Origin: a virus
Virus genome (UHGV): UHGV-0236088
DNA: 14,359 nucleotides
Strand: one strand, 5' to 3'
Part shown: piece by piece, positions 478 through 6,225 of the stretch
How the letters are laid out: every line of letters begins with the position of its first letter
How positions within the stretch are numbered: position 1 is the first letter of the stretch
Made by a program: the position numbers and the translations under genes
The notes under the pieces: generated by a model
Database searches by the model: none
The model's input: the letters and a program-made list of their open reading frames with translations, nothing else
Told to the model about the DNA's origin: nothing

Positions 478-660
478 TTATAGGTCGCTCACCCTCACCA
501 GTTTACCAGCATCAAGAAATATTTTGATTGTTTCTCGCGTAGTCTTAATGATTGGCGATACCCACTCGCCACAGCCAACGCGGATACGAATATCATCACC
601 TTCCACGCGGTAAAACAACCTGTCGACTACTGTTGCTGCGTACACACCATCTTCAATCAT
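478..660 (-). CDS. Hypothetical protein, 60 aa
   Basis: ORF track entry. AAGGAG 8 nt upstream of ATG at 660. ATGA overlap with the stop of the upstream gene. Confidence 0.5.
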   Translation of the reverse strand: MIEDGVYAATVVDRLFYRVEGDDIRIRVGCGEWVSPIIKTTRETIKIFLDAGKLVRVSDL

Positions 661-857
661 TTCTTGCGCTCCTTAATGGCCCGCATGATGTTGATGCGCA
701 TAGCATCAGCGAAAGCGTATATTGTAATGAAAGGCCAGAAAACCAACTCAAACCAAATAACGCCGTCACTACCTACAGCTTTCTGAAGAGCGCCCATTAA
801 AACTACACCAGCAAGGTAAAGGAGAACTACCGCAATAATAAGACATTCAATCATCAT
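657..857 (-). CDS. Small membrane protein, about 66 aa, two predicted transmembrane helices
   Basis: Translation is dominated by hydrophobic runs (IIAVVLLYLAGVVLMGAL and WFELVFWPFITIYAF). Tandem ATG ATG start with GAGGG upstream. Confidence 0.45.
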   Translation of the reverse strand: MMIECLIIAVVLLYLAGVVLMGALQKAVGSDGVIWFELVFWPFITIYAFADAMRINIMRAIKERKK

Positions 858-1104
858 CGCCCTCGTCTTCTTGTTCAGCTAGGAAATAATCAACTACGCG
901 GTAAGTCACTGGCGGGATGTATTCGAAATCATCCGAATCAAGATCAAGCGTCCGGCTGTCGCCGTCGTCGTCCATTGTGTTCATTCCCAACTCACCGAAA
1001 GGGCCGTACCCAATGTGGCCCAGATATTCGCAACCAATCGTAAAGCCAGGATATTCGCGTTTACATCTGACTTTATACAGCTTATTTGATGCGCTCAATT
1101 TCAA
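847..1104 (-). CDS. Hypothetical protein with a strongly acidic C-terminal half
   Basis: ORF track entry. The last 42 residues contain 17 Asp/Glu and 2 Arg. Start is uncertain: TTG at 1104 or 1098 (GAGGGG just upstream), or ATG at 984. Confidence 0.4.
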   Translation of the reverse strand: MKLSASNKLYKVRCKREYPGFTIGCEYLGHIGYGPFGELGMNTMDDDGDSRTLDLDSDDFEYIPPVTYRVVDYFLAEQEDEGDDD

Positions 1105-1405
1105 CCCCTCTGTTTTCTGCTTCAGTCATTTTGTATTCTGCAACCAGTTCAGCGCCAAGCAATTCCACTTCCATATCAGCGATACCCTGGAACATCAGAT
1201 AGGCAAAAACTAGGCTTTTAATTCTATCCAGGTCTTCAAGATGGTCTGCGTCAAAAGGCGGTTCAGATACGTGGAAGCATTTAACGTGCGCGTCGTCTTC
1301 AGTAGCCACACGGAAACATGCGCCGCGTTTACCTGCGAATTGTCCAATTTCTTTATCTTCTGGAAAAGATCCACGGAAAACTTTAACACTGATAAATTTA
1401 GACAT
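1082..1405 (-). CDS. Hypothetical protein, 107 aa
   Basis: GAAGGAGAG 7 nt upstream of ATG at 1405. No family recognised. Confidence 0.55.
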   Translation of the reverse strand: MSKFISVKVFRGSFPEDKEIGQFAGKRGACFRVATEDDAHVKCFHVSEPPFDADHLEDLDRIKSLVFAYLMFQGIADMEVELLGAELVAEYKMTEAENRGVEIERIK

Positions 1406-1428
1406 TGATTACTCTCCTTCGTAAGGAA

Positions 1429-1728
1429 TTAAAATTCAGCACCAGGTAAGCTACGCGCTTTATTTACCACATCGTGTTTTAACAATAAACTGGCGTGATA
1501 ACTTATGATCCCCATAATACCGACCTGTATTTCATCATTTTTTGACTTTATTATTAACAACTGGTTTTTAGTGAAGATCCTGTCTCCATCAGTGATATAT
1601 AACCAGTCACCACGTTTGCCAACAACAATGTGAGATCTGCCTAAGCTGTCTTTAAATTCATAATTACAGAAAACATCATCGTTAGGAACTTCAACAAAAC
1701 AGCAAGCAATAAATTTAGCGCTTTTCAT
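1429..1728 (-). CDS. Hypothetical protein, 99 aa (start moved to internal ATG)
   Basis: GAAGGGTG about 6 nt upstream of ATG at 1728 (MKSAKFIACCF...). The longer ORF-track start at 1758 has no RBS. Confidence 0.5.
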   Translation of the reverse strand: MKSAKFIACCFVEVPNDDVFCNYEFKDSLGRSHIVVGKRGDWLYITDGDRIFTKNQLLIIKSKNDEIQVGIMGIISYHASLLLKHDVVNKARSLPGAEF

Positions 1729-1771
1729 GATTACACCCTTCTGATTTGATGGGGCCATCCTGCCCCGTGTT

Positions 1772-1912
1772 TTATGCTTCTTCGCCTCCTTTAAACCCTA
1801 AGCACTCCGCGTACTCGTCAATGCTTAATGCTTCTTCACCTTGTGCCAGTAATTCAAAGTATCTTGCGTACAGTTCGAAAACCCAGGCCGGATATTTAGC
1901 GTTAGCGTTCAT
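1772..1912 (-). CDS. Small hypothetical protein, 46 aa (below the ORF-track cutoff)
   Basis: ATG at 1912 preceded by AAGGGGG. Translation MNANAKYPAWVFELYARYFELLAQGEEALSIDEYAECLGFKGGEEA. It fills the gap between neighbouring genes. Confidence 0.35.
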   Translation of the reverse strand: MNANAKYPAWVFELYARYFELLAQGEEALSIDEYAECLGFKGGEEA

Positions 1913-1922
1913 GGTTTCCCCC

Positions 1923-2195
1923 TTATGCCATACGTGCGAATTCAAGTGATTTGCATTCGTAGTCTTCCTCTGCCTGCATCACCACGTTGTTAATCATATG
2001 GTTTGCATCATCGAAGCCGTATTTTTTGGCGAATTCATCAGCACCGCCTTGGTGGTCATGCTCTGCGTTCATCGCTTCTACATAGTGGAACTCAAGATTG
2101 TTCAGGTAGGGACTAGAAACGCCGTCCTCTTTTTCAATCAGATCCCAAATTGCATTGAAGCGGGCTTTTGTTTCTTCGTTAATCCAGCGTTTCAT
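1923..2195 (-). CDS. Hypothetical protein, 90 aa
   Basis: GGAGGGTAG upstream of ATG at 2195. First gene downstream of the operator/promoter-like element at 2231-2276. Confidence 0.5.
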   Translation of the reverse strand: MKRWINEETKARFNAIWDLIEKEDGVSSPYLNNLEFHYVEAMNAEHDHQGGADEFAKKYGFDDANHMINNVVMQAEEDYECKSLEFARMA

Positions 2196-2230
2196 TTTTC
2201 TACCCTCCGCATCGTTCTCTCTTCAGCTTC

Positions 2231-2276
2231 TTTATAACAAAATGGCGCCACCAGAACAATGCCATTTTGTAAACTT
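2231..2276 (-). promoter_or_regulatory. Promoter/operator-like element, copy 1 of a repeated intergenic motif
   Basis: Minus strand TTGTTC (2259-2254), 17 nt spacer, TATAAA (2236-2231). Flanked by the inverted 9-mers ACAAAATGG and CCATTTTGT. Shares a 40 bp module with 8403-8483. Confidence 0.35.
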
Positions 2277-2293
2277 TGAAGGGTAGATCACAT

Positions 2294-2518
2294 TTATGCT
2301 TCTTCCGTAAAAGTAACCTTCATCGCCCCATCCGAACTACGGACAACATAACGACCAATACCGCCTAGCGGCCCTGCATACCATAAGTGACCGTAAGTGT
2401 CAGTCACGACGATAAACGGAAACTTAGGCGACAACCCCATCGGTTTTTCAGCCGTATACTGTGCGCCTTCTTCAAAACAGCCTAATTTCGATTCGTTACA
2501 CGTTAAAATCATTTTCAT
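2294..2518 (-). CDS. Small protein, 74 aa, member D of a four-gene tandem paralog array
   Basis: ATGA overlap with the upstream gene. Shared blocks FEEGAQY and IVVTDTYGHLWYA. Confidence 0.5.
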   Translation of the reverse strand: MKMILTCNESKLGCFEEGAQYTAEKPMGLSPKFPFIVVTDTYGHLWYAGPLGGIGRYVVRSSDGAMKVTFTEEA

Positions 2519-2754
2519 ACCCCTACATACGAAAACGCAGCAAAAGCACCACCACCAGCACGCGCATAAACAAGTGCCGTGCCATACCCCATCTTATAAA
2601 ATCGCCATAACTGACCCTGGTCGTCAGTAATGGCATGAATATATTCCTGATCCTTTGCGTCAACCAATGCCGCGCCAACCTCGTAGATCTTGCCATTCTT
2701 AAAAAACGCGCTGCATCGTGAGTATGTGCACTGGTATCTATGTTTCCGATTCAT
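2515..2754 (-). CDS. Small protein, 79 aa, paralog C
   Basis: GAGGTG upstream of ATG at 2754. Shared blocks FKNGKIYEVG and HAITDDQGQLWRF. Confidence 0.5.
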   Translation of the reverse strand: MNRKHRYQCTYSRCSAFFKNGKIYEVGAALVDAKDQEYIHAITDDQGQLWRFYKMGYGTALVYARAGGGAFAAFSYVGV

Positions 2755-2764
2755 AGCACCTCAC

Positions 2765-3022
2765 TTATTCCGGTTTACTGCCTTCGCGGGCGCAAAACTC
2801 CGCGATCTCACGGAAATCATGCACTATGCGATAAATATACAAACCAGCGGCGTTATTGATATGGCTAACATAAGCGAAATAAACTTTATCATCATCGCCA
2901 GTTATCGCCATTGCACCATCACCGCCCGGTGCGCCGTGGAGTTGAACGCCGCAATAGATCTTCCCTTCTTCAAAAATATTGCGGTCGCGCGTCTGCAATA
3001 CCTCAAAATATAAATGTTTCAT
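2765..3022 (-). CDS. Small protein, 85 aa, paralog B (start moved to internal ATG)
   Basis: AAAGGGG 6 nt upstream of ATG at 3022 (MKHLYF...). Shared blocks FEEGKIYCGV and MAITGDDDKVYFA. Confidence 0.5.
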   Translation of the reverse strand: MKHLYFEVLQTRDRNIFEEGKIYCGVQLHGAPGGDGAMAITGDDDKVYFAYVSHINNAAGLYIYRIVHDFREIAEFCAREGSKPE

Positions 3023-3032
3023 TGTTGCCCCT

Positions 3033-3245
3033 TTAATAACGTTCAAAGCTGGCAGCAAAACCTACACCGGATATTTCACCGCCTTCATAGCTCGGCCTGA
3101 ATACCCATATTTCGTCATGATTATCAATCAAGGCAAGGCAATTACTCATTGTGTGTGCTTCATTGCCATAAACGATGTGAACGTCATAAATACTCCCAAT
3201 CGTGAAAACACTGTCATTGCTTGAGTATGAGCATTTAACTTGCAT
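3033..3245 (-). CDS. Small protein, 70 aa, paralog A
   Basis: AAAGGGG upstream of ATG at 3245; TGATG overlap with the upstream stop. Shared blocks FTIGSIY and ALIDNHDEIWVF. Confidence 0.5.
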   Translation of the reverse strand: MQVKCSYSSNDSVFTIGSIYDVHIVYGNEAHTMSNCLALIDNHDEIWVFRPSYEGGEISGVGFAASFERY

Positions 3246-3496
3246 CAGAAAACCCCTTTATAATCGACCGTGTATTTTGCCACTAATTTCCATTCACAAT
3301 AGTTTTCCATGTCGCGAGGTTGCCAACCCTTCATCCCTACCGCACTCCGCGCAGCGTGACGGCGATAATAATCGTTATGGCTAGCTATGCACCACGGGTA
3401 CAGGACAAACATATATCCTGCCTCGTTAACCAGGATCGCCATCCGCTTTCCAGTTGCCTTATCTTTCGCCCGGAAATAACTTACCTTGATTTTCAT
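3245..3496 (-). CDS. Hypothetical protein, 83 aa
   Basis: GAGGTAA 7 nt upstream of ATG at 3496. Confidence 0.5.
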   Translation of the reverse strand: MKIKVSYFRAKDKATGKRMAILVNEAGYMFVLYPWCIASHNDYYRRHAARSAVGMKGWQPRDMENYCEWKLVAKYTVDYKGVF

Positions 3497-3707
3497 TTTT
3501 AATTACCTCGATCAGCATTTCTTCTTCCAGGTTAGCCGGGCGTTTACGAAATATCCCGGCAAAAACCAAATCATCCAGGTATCCTTTAGTGCAAAACAGC
3601 TTTTCTTCTCTCACCCCGTCAGAATCGCATCTATAAGCCTTTCCATTTATCAGAAAATAAAAGCTATAAGATGAAGGTGCCAGGCAAACATCCTCGTAAA
3701 CGTCCAT
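3459..3707 (-). CDS. Hypothetical protein, 82 aa
   Basis: GAGGGT upstream of ATG at 3707. Overlaps the next gene by 38 nt. Confidence 0.45.
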   Translation of the reverse strand: MDVYEDVCLAPSSYSFYFLINGKAYRCDSDGVREEKLFCTKGYLDDLVFAGIFRKRPANLEEEMLIEVIKNENQGKLFPGER

Positions 3708-3711
3708 AATA

Positions 3712-3939
3712 TTAACCCTCGACTACTTCCAGCCCGCGTCCCTTATCGCCAACGAAGTCGCCCAGGCTGAACGTATACGACCATGCCGGATTTATGTAAT
3801 GGTCATCAGCACCAGCGGCAATGAGATCAGCACCATTAATCATGCAAGTAATCTCATCGCTATGAACGACATTAACGACCTTACCAACAACCTGTTTCAA
3901 TGACGGGTAGCCGTGATCGTGCAAGAATTTAACTTTCAT
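3712..3939 (-). CDS. Hypothetical protein, 75 aa (start moved to internal ATG)
   Basis: AAGGGAAAG 6 nt upstream of ATG at 3939 (MKVKFLHDHG...). The longer ORF-track start has no RBS. Confidence 0.45.
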   Translation of the reverse strand: MKVKFLHDHGYPSLKQVVGKVVNVVHSDEITCMINGADLIAAGADDHYINPAWSYTFSLGDFVGDKGRGLEVVEG

Positions 3940-4222
3940 ATTTCTTTCCCTTGTAAGTAACAGCATCAGCGATAAGCAATACCGCCAGCATTTCTCCGTC
4001 ATGCAACGGGTCTGGAATAGCAAAAAATATGTCGCTGTTTTTGTCCGGCACTACTACGCGCATATTGCCTTGTTTGTCTTCATGAACAAACCACGGCTTT
4101 TCGTGTGGCTCAAACATACCGAAAAGCAATTTAAGATCTATTTCTTCTCCCTTCGTGAATAACGATACATCCGTTGTAGCGATAACTAACGCTTTCTGAT
4201 CTGCTGCTTTCTTTGCTTTCAT
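3929..4222 (-). CDS. Hypothetical protein, 97 aa
   Basis: GGAGG upstream of ATG at 4222; ATGA overlap with the upstream stop. Confidence 0.5.
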   Translation of the reverse strand: MKAKKAADQKALVIATTDVSLFTKGEEIDLKLLFGMFEPHEKPWFVHEDKQGNMRVVVPDKNSDIFFAIPDPLHDGEMLAVLLIADAVTYKGKKYES

Positions 4223-4452
4223 TCACCTGCCTCCCATCGGTCAATGCTGATTAAAAAGTCACGTATAGCGTGTCGTTCGTCGCGCGTTGGCTTGCGCTTT
4301 CTGTAGATCTTGAAGTCAAACCATTCTTTTTCTTGTTCGAAATCCATGTCGTAAGCAAGCGCCTCAATATATCCGCAGTCGTGATACTGGTACGCCACGC
4401 CAGCACGAACAAAAAAGCGGGTTTTATCCCGCTTGTGTTCATAAATACGCAT
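4219..4452 (-). CDS. Hypothetical protein, 77 aa
   Basis: GGGG 7 nt upstream of ATG at 4452. Confidence 0.5.
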   Translation of the reverse strand: MRIYEHKRDKTRFFVRAGVAYQYHDCGYIEALAYDMDFEQEKEWFDFKIYRKRKPTRDERHAIRDFLISIDRWEAGE

Positions 4453-4462
4453 ATTTACCCCG

Positions 4463-4693
4463 TTATGCAGTTGTGTAGCTGTCTACCAGCTTTTCATCCT
4501 TCATTCTTGCAAGCTGTGCAATGTTCATCGTGTAGCCGCCATCAGAGAAAAGCCACTCCGCAGCCTTGCGACGAAAAACAATATCATCATGGTTGTGCGT
4601 CCATGTAGCGATAACCACGCGCTTTCCGTCAGTGGCAAACATTGTTAATTCATTATCAACTACGTCGATAGCCTGCCATATTTTTAGCTCCAT
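4463..4693 (-). CDS. Hypothetical protein, 76 aa
   Basis: GGGGA 7 nt upstream of ATG at 4693. Confidence 0.5.
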   Translation of the reverse strand: MELKIWQAIDVVDNELTMFATDGKRVVIATWTHNHDDIVFRRKAAEWLFSDGGYTMNIAQLARMKDEKLVDSYTTA

Positions 4694-5049
4694 GATTTAT
4701 CCCCGTAAATTTTGAATAATTCCCGTGCTTCTTGATCTTCAAATAACTTCATATGCAGATCATGCAGGCGGCGCATTGTGCGGAAACGCGGTCGGAACTC
4801 CTGTCTGTTTTTAATAAACTTACCGCCAATTGAATAAATATGACCGTATGAATACCATCTATCCCCGACCCAAATTAGATAAATTTCACCCTCATAATTA
4901 AATTTGATTGTAAGCTCGTCAACCTCCATTATTAATCCTTTATCGAGGATATCATTCAGCATGTCGTCCCATTCTTTGAGGAATTGTTGCTGATACATGC
5001 CAAAAATTGTATTTGCAGCGTGGCAAAGGTAATCAAGGATTATTTGCAT
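4684..5049 (-). CDS. Hypothetical protein, 121 aa
   Basis: ORF track entry with a plausible GTGGTGA RBS. Confidence 0.5.
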   Translation of the reverse strand: MQIILDYLCHAANTIFGMYQQQFLKEWDDMLNDILDKGLIMEVDELTIKFNYEGEIYLIWVGDRWYSYGHIYSIGGKFIKNRQEFRPRFRTMRRLHDLHMKLFEDQEARELFKIYGDKSWS

Positions 5050-5053
5050 ATTG

Positions 5054-5266
5054 TCACCACATCATATAATAAACGTTATCGTAAGCTAATTGGTCCGCGT
5101 CTTCTTGCGTCATGTGCCGCGCTTCCAGAAAGAAATCTTCGTTATGCCATTCACAAACAAGCATTCGCGCCCATTTGCGGCGCTGGCGTTTATTGTGTCG
5201 CAGATCATCAAAAACCTTTAACGCTTTGTCATATGACCTTACCAGGCGTTTACGGTTACTTTTCAT
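5054..5266 (-). CDS. Hypothetical basic protein, 70 aa
   Basis: AGGAG/GGTGAG upstream of ATG at 5266. Arg/Lys-rich N-terminal half. Confidence 0.5.
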   Translation of the reverse strand: MKSNRKRLVRSYDKALKVFDDLRHNKRQRRKWARMLVCEWHNEDFFLEARHMTQEDADQLAYDNVYYMMW

Positions 5267-5471
5267 TTCTCACCACTCCTATTTCCTTGATCTCAATATT
5301 GCGCAACCGGACGTCGCACGGCGTTTCAGATTTACCAGTAAGCGCCAGCGTCAGGTTTTCAGGTGTCGTATAGAGAATTATCTCTTTACCCGTGCTAAAT
5401 TTAATTTCTATGCGGATCTCGCTTTCGTCGCCGCACAACACACGACTGATTGACAGGCCAGCTTTTTTCAT
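5256..5471 (-). CDS. Hypothetical protein, 71 aa (start moved to internal ATG)
   Basis: AAGGTGGGGGAG upstream of ATG at 5471; ATGA overlap with the upstream stop. Confidence 0.5.
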   Translation of the reverse strand: MKKAGLSISRVLCGDESEIRIEIKFSTGKEIILYTTPENLTLALTGKSETPCDVRLRNIEIKEIGVVRNEK

Positions 5472-5776
5472 TGCTCCCCCCACCTTAACATCCAATTCAC
5501 ATCACATTTAATTGCGAATACCTTAACAGGATCAGGGCCGAATAATGGATGCGTGATAGTTTTTACTTCGTACCCGAAATAAGGCAGGTTTATGTTCCGG
5601 TGCGCTTCGTGGCTGGCTGGATACCCCAGCTTAATGATCAGGCGTTCATATTCCCGCCCCTCCAGGCGTTTACGCCAATAGTCATTGTAAAGCCTGTATT
5701 CTTCCACCTTCTTTCCCGCCCGGATGGCGTGGAAATATTCCCCTTTCAGGTTCAAGTGTAGGTCTTTACTTGCCAT
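5468..5776 (-). CDS. Hypothetical protein, 102 aa; possible ASCH/PUA-like fold (weak)
   Basis: N-terminal HLNLKGEYFHAIRAGKKVEEYR resembles the ASCH/DUF3850 beta-barrel signature (Y/F..I..G.K..E.R). Recalled from memory only, no search run. Confidence 0.45.
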   Translation of the reverse strand: MASKDLHLNLKGEYFHAIRAGKKVEEYRLYNDYWRKRLEGREYERLIIKLGYPASHEAHRNINLPYFGYEVKTITHPLFGPDPVKVFAIKCDVNWMLRWGEQ

Positions 5777-6035
5777 CGCTATGATCCTGTAAGCAGTCGT
5801 TGTAGCCTTCGATGTATCCGGTTAATCCTGTGTTACTTACTGACCAATCAGCCGAACGGCGCTTGATGGCCTTGTCCATAGTCATCTCGTCACCTGGCCC
5901 GCCTGGCTCGATGTATTTTCTTAAATCCCTTACTATCCACGACCCTAATTGTTGCGTATCACTGCACACACGCGCCGTTAATGTCAGATTATTAACCAGC
6001 TTTGCGAATAGATGTTCTTTTAATTTAGGCTTCAT
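5766..6035 (-). CDS. Hypothetical protein, 89 aa
   Basis: GAGGTGAAGG upstream of ATG at 6035. Confidence 0.5.
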   Translation of the reverse strand: MKPKLKEHLFAKLVNNLTLTARVCSDTQQLGSWIVRDLRKYIEPGGPGDEMTMDKAIKRRSADWSVSNTGLTGYIEGYNDCLQDHSDGK

Positions 6036-6225
6036 CCTTCACCTCGCGACGATAGATTTCTACTGGCTTAACCGGAATAGCGTTAAAATCCCCTTCATCC
6101 AGTGCGGCAATAAACGTTAGCGCCAACCGTGCTTCAACACCGCTTAAATACTTGCACCATGCATCACCGTTATAATCTTCAAAAAGAATAATCACTTTTT
6201 TCATGTTTATCTCTTGTTGTTTCAT
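6025..6225 (-). CDS. Hypothetical protein, 66 aa, translationally coupled to Q
   Basis: TAATG overlap with the Q stop codon. An alternative ATG at 6204 would give MKKVIILF.... Confidence 0.45.
   Translation of the reverse strand: MKQQEINMKKVIILFEDYNGDAWCKYLSGVEARLALTFIAALDEGDFNAIPVKPVEIYRREVKDEA

Follow-up and report, generated by a model that had tools for sequence, protein, structure and literature searches.

A collinear array of small genes between Q and a putative pR'-like late promoter in mEp021-like temperate coliphages

A Small-Gene Array between Q and the Holin Gene

The virus genome UHGV-0236088 carries, between the late antiterminator gene Q and the holin gene, a nearly gapless run of small genes, referred to here as the array. 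The stretch of DNA analysed (the window) is 14,359 nucleotides (nt) long; its genes lie on the minus strand throughout, and all coordinates below refer to that strand. Most of the window aligns at 86-88% identity with Escherichia phage MagusPhagus and with the phages mEp010, mEp013, mEp021, mEp044, mEp515 and mEp554, and prophages of 35 complete Escherichia coli genomes are 84-91% identical to it. By these matches it is a member of the published mEp021-like ("mEpimmI") group of temperate coliphages, which PMC11893012 describes as Nus-dependent and non-lambdoid.

The gene order in annotated relatives is repressor, N-like antiterminator (Gp17), erf, ssb, abc2, many small open reading frames (ORFs) and dam, followed by a membrane protein, a cytosine methylase, ninF, ninG, rusA, Q and further small ORFs, and it ends with holin, lysozyme, spanin and terminase, the whole series being co-directional. 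For comparison, 47 loci were assembled: 44 from IMG/VR, MagusPhagus, mEp021 and the window itself. The IMG/VR loci were found with Q as the anchor; this gave 46, of which two without the holin side were left out. A contig collection with one genome per species, when scanned with Q, gave no confirmed locus.

The array comprises 24 ORFs of 46-121 amino acids (aa), which occupy positions 6225-478 at a coding density of 96.8%. The stop codon of Q overlaps the start of the first gene, g1, as TAATG. Fourteen of the 23 junctions are overlapping (four ATGA, two single-base and eight of 10-38 nt), and the remaining nine are spacers of 4-23 nt, with one exception of 98 nt (2196-2293). A G-rich ribosome-binding site stands ahead of nearly every start. 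PHROG families are matched by 20 of the 24 ORFs, each family being of unknown function, and the ratio of nonsynonymous to synonymous substitution rates (dN/dS) is 0.055-0.42 for all 23 families that are comparable across the 47 relatives; all ORF families are under purifying selection. The PHROG matches and the dN/dS values together argue that the ORFs are real genes. The original prediction, which had been made from this DNA alone, described an island of about 24 small ORFs between Q and the lysis genes that opens with the TAATG overlap and carries only small unassigned proteins. That description stands, no member having an assigned function.

Searches for known domains were negative. No array ORF had a Pfam match above the cut-off, and NCBIfam gave nothing for the ten array proteins compared with it. 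The 24 proteins matched nothing in a PDB sequence search when concatenated and, as two concatenated queries, no PADLOC family at E<=1; concatenation may have slightly reduced the sensitivity of both searches. Rfam found no family in the whole window. No toxin or tRNA gene was found in the array, the tRNA part of this statement resting on Rfam, since no dedicated tRNA scan was run.

It had also been proposed that the array leaves no room for a promoter until a gap of 280 bp before the holin. This is essentially correct, and the only conserved promoter-like block does sit in that gap, but the gap is not empty: it houses g24 (406-305), a 33-codon remnant of a second g23-family gene, which leaves about 108 nt of non-coding DNA (304-197) in front of the holin.

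Q and the Putative Late Promoter

The product of Q (6947-6225, 240 aa) was correctly called from the start. It scores 102.8 bits with Pfam PF03589 (E 1e-29), where the cut-off is 26.7, matches phrog_127 (E 1e-78), aligns with lambda Q over its full length (residues 1-238, 35% identity, E 6e-49), and matches the sequence of the solved lambda Q structure (PDB 7UBM, 1e-39). The C-terminal zinc-binding cysteine pairs are present, with CKRCKG...CQHCGG aligned with CRDCHG...CGRCKG of lambda. On this evidence it is a genuine lambda-type Q. A 31-aa insertion relative to lambda Q (residues about 117-147) bears extra CxxC pairs. Within the mEpimmI clade, Q proteins share more than 80% identity; with each of the 243 other phage Q matches they share less than 37%. 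On the other side of the array, the holin gene (196-1) is represented by its first 65 codons before it runs off the window; it belongs to the HP1 family (PF16080, 1.5e-14) and is named holin in relatives.

The pR' promoter of lambda consists of TTGACT, a 17-nt spacer, TAAATT, TGACTC, AACGAT and GGG. The AACGAT hexamer is a -10-like element that causes a sigma70-dependent pause, and it is there that lambda Q loads; a lambda-type Q must load at such a promoter-proximal, sigma-dependent pause. The 108-nt non-coding stretch before the holin of the window has a comparable layout. On the minus strand it reads TTGTAG-17-TAAAAT-ATTTCCT-AACAAT-GCGAAATTGTAATT, followed by a hairpin and by the ribosome-binding site and ATG of the holin. 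The putative late promoter (296-255) would thus have TTGTAG (296-291) as its -35 element, a spacer of 17 nt, TAAAAT (273-268) as its -10 element and, after 7 nt, AACAAT (260-255) as its pause hexamer. The hairpin belongs to an intrinsic terminator (240-211), which a terminator scan also reports; it combines a G+C-rich stem-loop (240-221) with a T-tract and has a fold energy of -25.3 kcal/mol (z -4.45). Its equivalent in mEp021 is t5, annotated there as TERM_5, and a figure legend in PMC11893012 lists t5 among experimentally demonstrated terminators. The space between this terminator and the ribosome-binding site of the holin is too short for a promoter.

The 160 nt upstream of the holin were aligned for the 47 loci, which provide 30 distinct sequences. 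From AAACAAA through GATTAAAAT and CTAACAATGCGAAA to the terminator the alignment is almost invariant, and the -10 and pause hexamers are the same in all 47 loci. The DNA farther upstream falls into several unrelated types, set by which gene comes last in the array. Among 2.9 million viral contigs, only 47 contain a 28-nt core motif of the block. This Q clade is present in 44 of them, and two more share samples with contigs of truncated Q.

The pR'-like block is present in a single copy, and a second copy near Q was rejected as a candidate, the window containing only one match. The block lies 5,929 nt from the Q stop, whereas lambda pR' starts 45 nt after Q. No conserved sequence follows Q in the 47 loci: its stop overlaps either g1, which has two divergent alleles, or g6 or g7 in shorter arrays. 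The pR'-like layout, the near-invariance, the single copy and the co-occurrence with the Q clade, together with the lack of anything conserved after Q and the need of a lambda-type Q for a promoter-proximal pause, are the reasons for which we infer that the Q-dependent late promoter is located directly before the holin.

Probable Position of the Array within the Early Operon

If the late promoter follows the array, the array should be transcribed early, together with Q. One strand carries the N-like gene, erf, ssb, abc2, dam, ninG, rusA and Q alike. A boxA-like sequence, TGCTCTTTAAAAA, is located at 8388-8376, upstream of ninF, ninG, rusA and Q, so that polymerase entering the array would already be modified by Gp17. 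PMC11893012 places nutR2 at that site, upstream of ninF. The boxA-like sequence is followed by a small A-rich hairpin and preceded by a large inverted repeat on ATGGCGCCAT (8490-8400; -31.5 kcal/mol, z -5.0).

Two hairpins are found inside the array. The first, T_g8 (4443-4404), came from the terminator scan. It lies in codons 4-16 of g8, resembles a terminator in having a U-tract, and has a fold energy of -19 kcal/mol (z -5.1). It is identical in 42 of the 47 loci, and the variants lie in the loop or the tail or keep the pairing as G-U. It is also the least variable 29-nt stretch of g8, with 2-3 variable columns against a mean of 9.9, in a gene whose median dS is about 0.5. T_g8 may act in termination, RNA processing or translation.

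The second hairpin, T_gap (2270-2231), lies in the 98-nt spacer and includes promoter-like hexamers. It is kept at its junction in 30 of the 47 loci irrespective of the flanking genes; its arms are exactly complementary, and a T-rich tail follows. T_gap contains the motif TTGTTCTGG-N5-CCATTTTGT, which occurs at three intergenic sites of the early operon (2259-2237, in T_gap; 8430-8408; 12016-11994) against a chance expectation of 0.02. The motif is a candidate promoter, terminator or binding site. Each copy precedes a TATA-like hexamer, and the copy at 8430-8408 is just upstream of the boxA-like sequence. The record of mEp010 has an ARNold terminator annotated within the Q-to-holin interval. 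Internal sigma70 promoters as a general feature of the array were rejected, the count of promoter-like sites being below the shuffle expectation (11 found, 14.9 expected).

The early operon upstream of Q (14216-9247) is as rich in small unassigned ORFs as the array itself. About 20 of them lie between abc2 and ninG, amid two DNA methylases and a multi-pass membrane protein. For this reason, the gene density of the array is not exceptional for the phage. Between rusA and Q there is one further small gene, a coiled-coil-like ORF of 64 aa (7141-6947; phrog_18514, 6e-26) that ends in an overlap with the start of Q; the mEp021 annotation has no gene at that spot.

Variation of the Array among Relatives

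The length of the Q-to-holin interval across the 47 loci ranges from 2.0 kb with eight genes, in mEp021, to 6.8 kb with 28 genes. The 988 ORFs of these loci fall into 51 families. Gene order is strictly conserved, and loci differ by the presence of genes or blocks, by divergent alleles and by copy number. Three genes (g7, g11 and g12) are present in all 47 loci, g6 and g8 in 46, and g10 in 42. The five near-universal genes (g6, g7, g8, g11 and g12) have dN/dS values at the low end, 0.055-0.12; the other genes occur in 17-45 loci, several of them with higher values of up to 0.40. The blocks that flank this central module are freely lost, duplicated or fused.

The array is therefore not an insertion peculiar to this phage: it is accessory DNA that the whole family carries in collinear form around a conserved centre, and all 47 relatives examined have it, with five near-universal genes. 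The original prediction expected variable accessory DNA in this interval and was right, the plaque-forming mEp021 having only eight of these genes. Sorting the interval into conserved and variable genes, which it had suggested, leaves the five near-universal genes on one side and, on the other, genes that come and go as blocks. Recent acquisition of the island as foreign DNA was rejected because neither its G+C content (0.38-0.48) nor its strand skew sets it apart from the rest of the window.

Several loci contain genes that are absent from the window. A gene with a PAPS-reductase domain (PF01507, 2.4e-9) stands in place of the paralog block in three loci (L015, L017 and L031), and a gene of the same type is located just upstream of Q in Erwinia phage Midgardsormr38 (L052), a lambdoid phage. 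A zinc-ribbon protein is encoded between g1 and g2 in 20 loci. One locus (L003, IMGVR_UViG_3300045988_059992) has a Q that is 100% identical to that of the window, yet its g5, g22 and g23 alleles are only 49-64% identical, which shows very recent mosaic exchange within the array.

A Paralog Family with a Predicted Gp54-Type Fold

The block g13-g16 had been described as four paralogs. Three of them hold: g13 (3245-3033, 70 aa) and g15 (2754-2515, 79 aa; phrog_31142, 1e-5) form one BLAST family, and g16 (2518-2294, 74 aa) shares the conserved C, F, G, Y, D, W and F positions of that family and its predicted fold. The fourth, g14 (3022-2765, 85 aa; 17/47 loci), is probably a divergent paralog: it shares only the F, G, Y and D positions, its BLASTP similarity to g15 amounts to 33% identity at E 0.009, and hhalign gives only E 0.006. 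The N-terminal half of g21 also follows the pattern of the family. The g13/g15 family has one to four copies per locus. A profile search among 5.8 billion proteins found 61 clusters of the paralog family, all unnamed and all from E. coli or its phages.

Database matches include natural chimeras of the family. In P0041 and P0051, a paralog N-terminal half is joined to a g21 C-terminal half at a DDxGD motif, and among P0041, P0051 and P0056 a paralog half is also joined at DDxGD to a C-terminus of the g24/gp45 type. These chimeras are evidence that recombination between paralogs makes both deletions, by which the intervening genes are lost, and fusions.

AlphaFold2 models of g13 and g16 have mean predicted local distance difference test (pLDDT) scores of 87.8 and 88.4 and predicted template modelling (pTM) scores of 0.74 and 0.76, respectively, and both show six strands in the same order. 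Their match to Gp54 of phage Bas11 (PDB 9AXB) is clearly above that to all other folds. Among viral models, Foldseek retrieves small uncharacterised proteins of T1-like phages (best E 5e-4, TM 0.73-0.79). It is thus predicted that g13, g15 and g16, and probably g14, adopt a six-stranded beta-barrel of the Gp54 type. Gp54 is a non-essential Bas11 protein of 66 aa and of unknown function, whose six-stranded barrel topology is 'very rare in nature' (PMC11578894). It directly binds and activates the CapRelSJ46 defence protein, its close homologs fail to activate CapRel, and its authors suggest that it may inhibit another defence system (PMC11578894). If the models are right, the tandem Gp54-like paralogs would be the most specific lead to the function of the array.

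Other Genes of the Array

The first five genes lie on the Q side of the conserved centre. The first, g1 (6225-6025, 66 aa; phrog_35000, 6e-43), is found in 42/47 loci with a dN/dS of 0.15 and exists as two alleles about 50% identical to each other, pairwise identities falling into classes of 48-57% or 92-100%. The next gene is g2 (6035-5766, 89 aa; phrog_29262, 5e-58; 40/47 loci; dN/dS 0.22). An ASCH-like protein had been predicted in the island, and g3 (5776-5468, 102 aa; phrog_625, 5.6e-36; 37/47 loci) is that protein. It has the GxKxxExR signature at G21-R28 (G21-K-K23-V-E-E26-Y-R28) and a Pfam ASCH (PF04266) match over residues 8-32 only, with an E of 0.019 and 16.1 bits, which is below the gathering threshold of 21.2. 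Its N-terminal motif weakly matches PDB 2Z0T (E 0.4), which we take to be PH0355, an ASCH protein. Homologs that are 56-58% identical occur in Shiga toxin (Stx) and P22-like phages, where they are named 'ASCH domain-containing protein' in RefSeq and adjoin EaA-type early-left genes. Homologs of g4 (5471-5256, 71 aa; phrog_1222, 2e-29; 18/47 loci) are found in Stx phages and in virulent Dhillonvirus phages. The product of g5 (5266-5054, 70 aa; phrog_8758, 7e-25) is basic; the gene occurs in 43/47 loci with a dN/dS of 0.21.

The centre of the array begins with g6 (5049-4684, 121 aa; dN/dS 0.088). Its family comprises 164 clusters at E<1e-3 in an exhaustive HMMER search, all stand-alone proteins of about 120 aa. 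The family profile matches nothing in Pfam or PDB and the source names are all 'hypothetical'; by its profile, g6 is a member of a broad and so far undescribed family. It is followed by g7 (4693-4463, 76 aa; phrog_38280; dN/dS 0.12), g8 (4452-4219, 77 aa; phrog_30442; dN/dS 0.055), which has T_g8 within its 5' end, g9 (4222-3929, 97 aa; phrog_33175, 2.5e-62; 29/47 loci; dN/dS 0.11) and g10 (3939-3712, 75 aa; phrog_5009, 6e-31; dN/dS 0.083). The universal g11 (3707-3459, 82 aa; dN/dS 0.11) is 70% identical to mEp021 gp41 (mEp021_41), which is annotated 'virion structural protein' and which was detected in virions by mass spectrometry (PMC11893012). It overlaps the basic and likewise universal g12 (3496-3245, 83 aa; phrog_38609; dN/dS 0.095) by 38 nt (3496-3459). 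In several relatives g11 stops 11 codons sooner, exactly at the g12 start, with another C-terminus (…EEEMLIDEVLK).

The distal genes follow the paralog block and the 98-nt spacer. They start with the acidic proteins g17 (2195-1923, 90 aa; phrog_7287, 3e-42; 17/47 loci) and g18 (1912-1772, 46 aa; phrog_22232, 4e-34; 29/47 loci; dN/dS 0.061). No PHROG or Pfam match was found for g19 (1758-1429, 109 aa, or 99 aa from a second ATG; 33/47 loci; dN/dS 0.21), while g20 (1405-1082, 107 aa; 43/47 loci; dN/dS 0.35) matches phrog_23107 (3e-63). Two proteins singled out from the sequence at the outset are readily recognised here. The very acidic one is g21 (1104-847, 85 aa; phrog_25234), with an isoelectric point of 4.2, 20 aspartate plus glutamate residues, an acidic tail and the paralog-like N-terminal half. 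The predicted two-helix membrane protein is g22 (857-657, 66 aa; phrog_10061), the only protein of the island with Kyte-Doolittle windows of 1.6 or more, which is the grade expected of transmembrane segments; its two alleles are about 50% identical to each other. In the g23 family (g23 at 660-478, 60 aa; phrog_15318, 3e-32), two genes per locus are usual, 45 loci having 76 members in all, and the allele classes are about 50% identical. The remnant g24 matches the same PHROG family (9.5e-11) and is related to g23 by hhalign (98.7%); it occupies the position of mEp021 gp45, where both MagusPhagus and mEp021 have full-length genes of 58 aa.

Models for the Function and Expression of the Array

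Taken together, these results make it fairly probable that the array is the mEpimmI version of an early accessory-gene array, co-transcribed with Q and ending at a displaced pR'-like promoter and terminator. The early operon would run from the immunity region, with polymerase modified by the N-like Gp17 at nut sites, and the modified polymerase would read through the two terminator-like hairpins inside the array, which would form the distal part of the operon. Q made from the same transcript would then act in trans 5.9 kb downstream and carry polymerase through t5, and this read-through would express the lysis and morphogenesis genes. The array would thus behave like a lambda nin region moved beyond Q, a set of early proteins, most of them dispensable, with the host or its defences as their probable targets. 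Such host-directed or counter-defence roles are plausible but unproven, and for the conserved centre, g6-g12, a role closer to the needs of the phage itself is possible.

Several points weigh against this reading. Firstly, the late promoter has been deduced from sequence only: its -35 hexamer is weak (TTGTAG, 3/6), with TCGCGC in its place in about one relative in three, the block is not listed by a simple consensus scan, and the TTGACT-like element beside the pause hexamer has no clear counterpart, the bases there being ATTTCCT. Secondly, the line between early and late transcription may be blurred if Gp17-modified polymerase also reads through t5, and the promoter-like hexamers of the 98-nt spacer mean that part of the array could be expressed separately. 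Thirdly, the five near-universal genes and the virion-associated homolog of g11 suggest that the central module is not merely accessory. Finally, no array protein matched a known defence or anti-defence family in the PADLOC and PDB sequence searches. A profile search of PDB with the paralogs did not find 9AXB, and hhalign gives a probability of 0.2% against Gp54. The AlphaFold2 models of g13 and g16 also share most of their alignment. The link to Gp54 is accordingly a resemblance of predicted structures at the level of the fold and not a family assignment.

A different reading gives the array, or at least g6-g12, a core function in replication, virion assembly or lysis timing. It draws on the presence of g7, g11 and g12 in 47/47 and of g6 and g8 in 46/47 loci at low dN/dS (0.055-0.12), on the invariant T_g8 hairpin embedded among them, and on the g11 homolog detected in purified mEp021 virions (PMC11893012). 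Conservation does not establish essentiality, however, and this would apply to at most five to seven central genes, the other 17 or so being absent from at least one viable or complete relative; moreover, no array gene is similar to a replication, morphogenesis or lysis family. As an account of the array, a core function is doubtful.

A more specific form of the early-array model would make it an early counter-defence locus, with the Gp54-like paralogs (g13-g16, the N-terminal half of g21, and F27 in relatives) as its engine, shuffling binders that neutralise immune sensors or act as decoys. This is unlikely as it stands. If it were true, each small binder would target a different host immune sensor and recombination would keep making new combinations and fusions; the Gp54 fold would gain its first functional context, and a Q that acts kilobases from its own gene would be the normal arrangement in a whole phage family.

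Parts of the array, such as g17-g23, might instead be lysogenic conversion or exclusion genes that are expressed from an internal prophage promoter and protect the lysogen, with g22 as the exclusion factor. The spacer element TTGTTC-17-TATAAA, kept at its junction in 30/47 loci, could be such a promoter, g22, with its two divergent alleles, encodes a small predicted membrane protein of two helices, and the distal genes have higher dN/dS values (0.32-0.40). The same spacer element, however, folds as a hairpin with a T-rich tail, in an interval where mEp010 has an annotated terminator, and the usual moron layout of own promoter and own terminator is lacking. The PADLOC search gave no match, and the known exclusion lipoproteins of the group map elsewhere according to PMC11893012. 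This explanation is quite improbable.

The least convincing proposal, that a late promoter at or within the 3' end of Q makes the 24 genes Q-dependent late cargo or constitutive morons like stx, has in its favour that the variable, cargo-like interval occupies the Stx cargo site between Q and the lysis genes and that lambda pR' starts 45 nt after Q, but it is very improbable, because no conserved non-coding or promoter-like sequence follows Q, whose stop overlaps a next gene that itself varies, because promoter-like sites in the array are below the shuffle expectation (11 vs 14.9), and because the sole pR'-like block, found once per genome and co-occurring with the Q clade, is at the holin end.

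Comparison with Known Systems

The nearest parallel to an early accessory array of this kind is the lambda nin region, ninA-ninI, which lies between P and Q and is removed by the nin5 deletion. Like nin, the array would be a run of small, overlapping and mostly dispensable ORFs with internal terminators in an N-antiterminated early operon. Its ORFs are coupled to one another and co-oriented with the early genes, and natural variants lack most of them. Genes of the ninF, ninG and rusA type are part of the adjoining early operon in both phages, here just upstream of Q and outside the array. A shared pool of nin-like genes is also suggested by the homologs of g3 and g4 in early accessory regions of Stx and P22-like phages, and by the PAPS-reductase gene, which is within the array in three relatives and upstream of Q in the Erwinia lambdoid phage. 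The array differs from nin in its position past Q and ahead of the promoter that Q presumably acts on, in having 8-28 genes against about 10, and in families that are almost all unrelated and unannotated.

The original prediction compared the island with the cargo of Stx phages, namely stx genes and tRNAs, whose position after pR'-tR' makes their expression dependent on Q. Variable cargo is physically between Q and the lysis cassette in both cases, but here the only pR'-like block and its terminator come after the cargo, directly before the holin, and the analogy is not borne out.

The putative late promoter resembles the pR'/6S/tR' region of lambda in its order of -35, 17-nt spacer and -10, followed after 6-7 nt by AACGAT in lambda and AACAAT here, in the intrinsic terminator ahead of the holin, and in a cognate Q that is a full-length homolog of lambda Q. 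It differs in its distance from Q (5.9 kb versus 45 nt), in a -35 element that is weak or absent in some relatives, in the predicted terminated RNA, which would be about 46 nt long versus 194 nt, and in having no TTGACT-like element adjoining the pause hexamer.

The paralogs resemble Gp54 of Bas11 in being small (70-79 aa versus 66 aa) and in coming from a run of small early genes. There is no detectable sequence or profile similarity between them, Bas11 is a virulent member of the Drexlerviridae whereas the mEpimmI phages are temperate, and the paralogs occur here as one to four tandem copies.

The same locus is represented in mEp021 by gp38-gp45 (MH706966), where homologs of g7, g8, g10, g11, g12, g19 and the g23 family are followed by t5 and the holin; it differs in having only eight genes in 2.0 kb. 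Flexible genes and t5 of this phage group are reported in PMC11893012, and in the parts of that paper available to us the array, the late promoter and the paralog family are not described.

Implications for the mEpimmI Phages

Accessory early regions of temperate phages, and the phage group itself, were known before. What is new is an array placed between Q and its presumed target, the conserved hairpins embedded in it, and a predicted family of Gp54-like paralogs. The finding does not overturn current models, and its significance is moderate.

The predicted barrel family would link orphan proteins of temperate phages to the only solved member of a rare fold. Both the invariant hairpin in g8 and the recurring intergenic motif may have a regulatory role in the early operon. 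With its approximately 50 small early protein families and built-in presence/absence variants, the array is a compact natural library and would be convenient material for host-takeover or anti-defence screens. More generally, a location between Q and the lysis cassette does not by itself mark a gene as late cargo under Q control: in this abundant group of gut coliphages, up to 28 genes appear to separate Q from its target.

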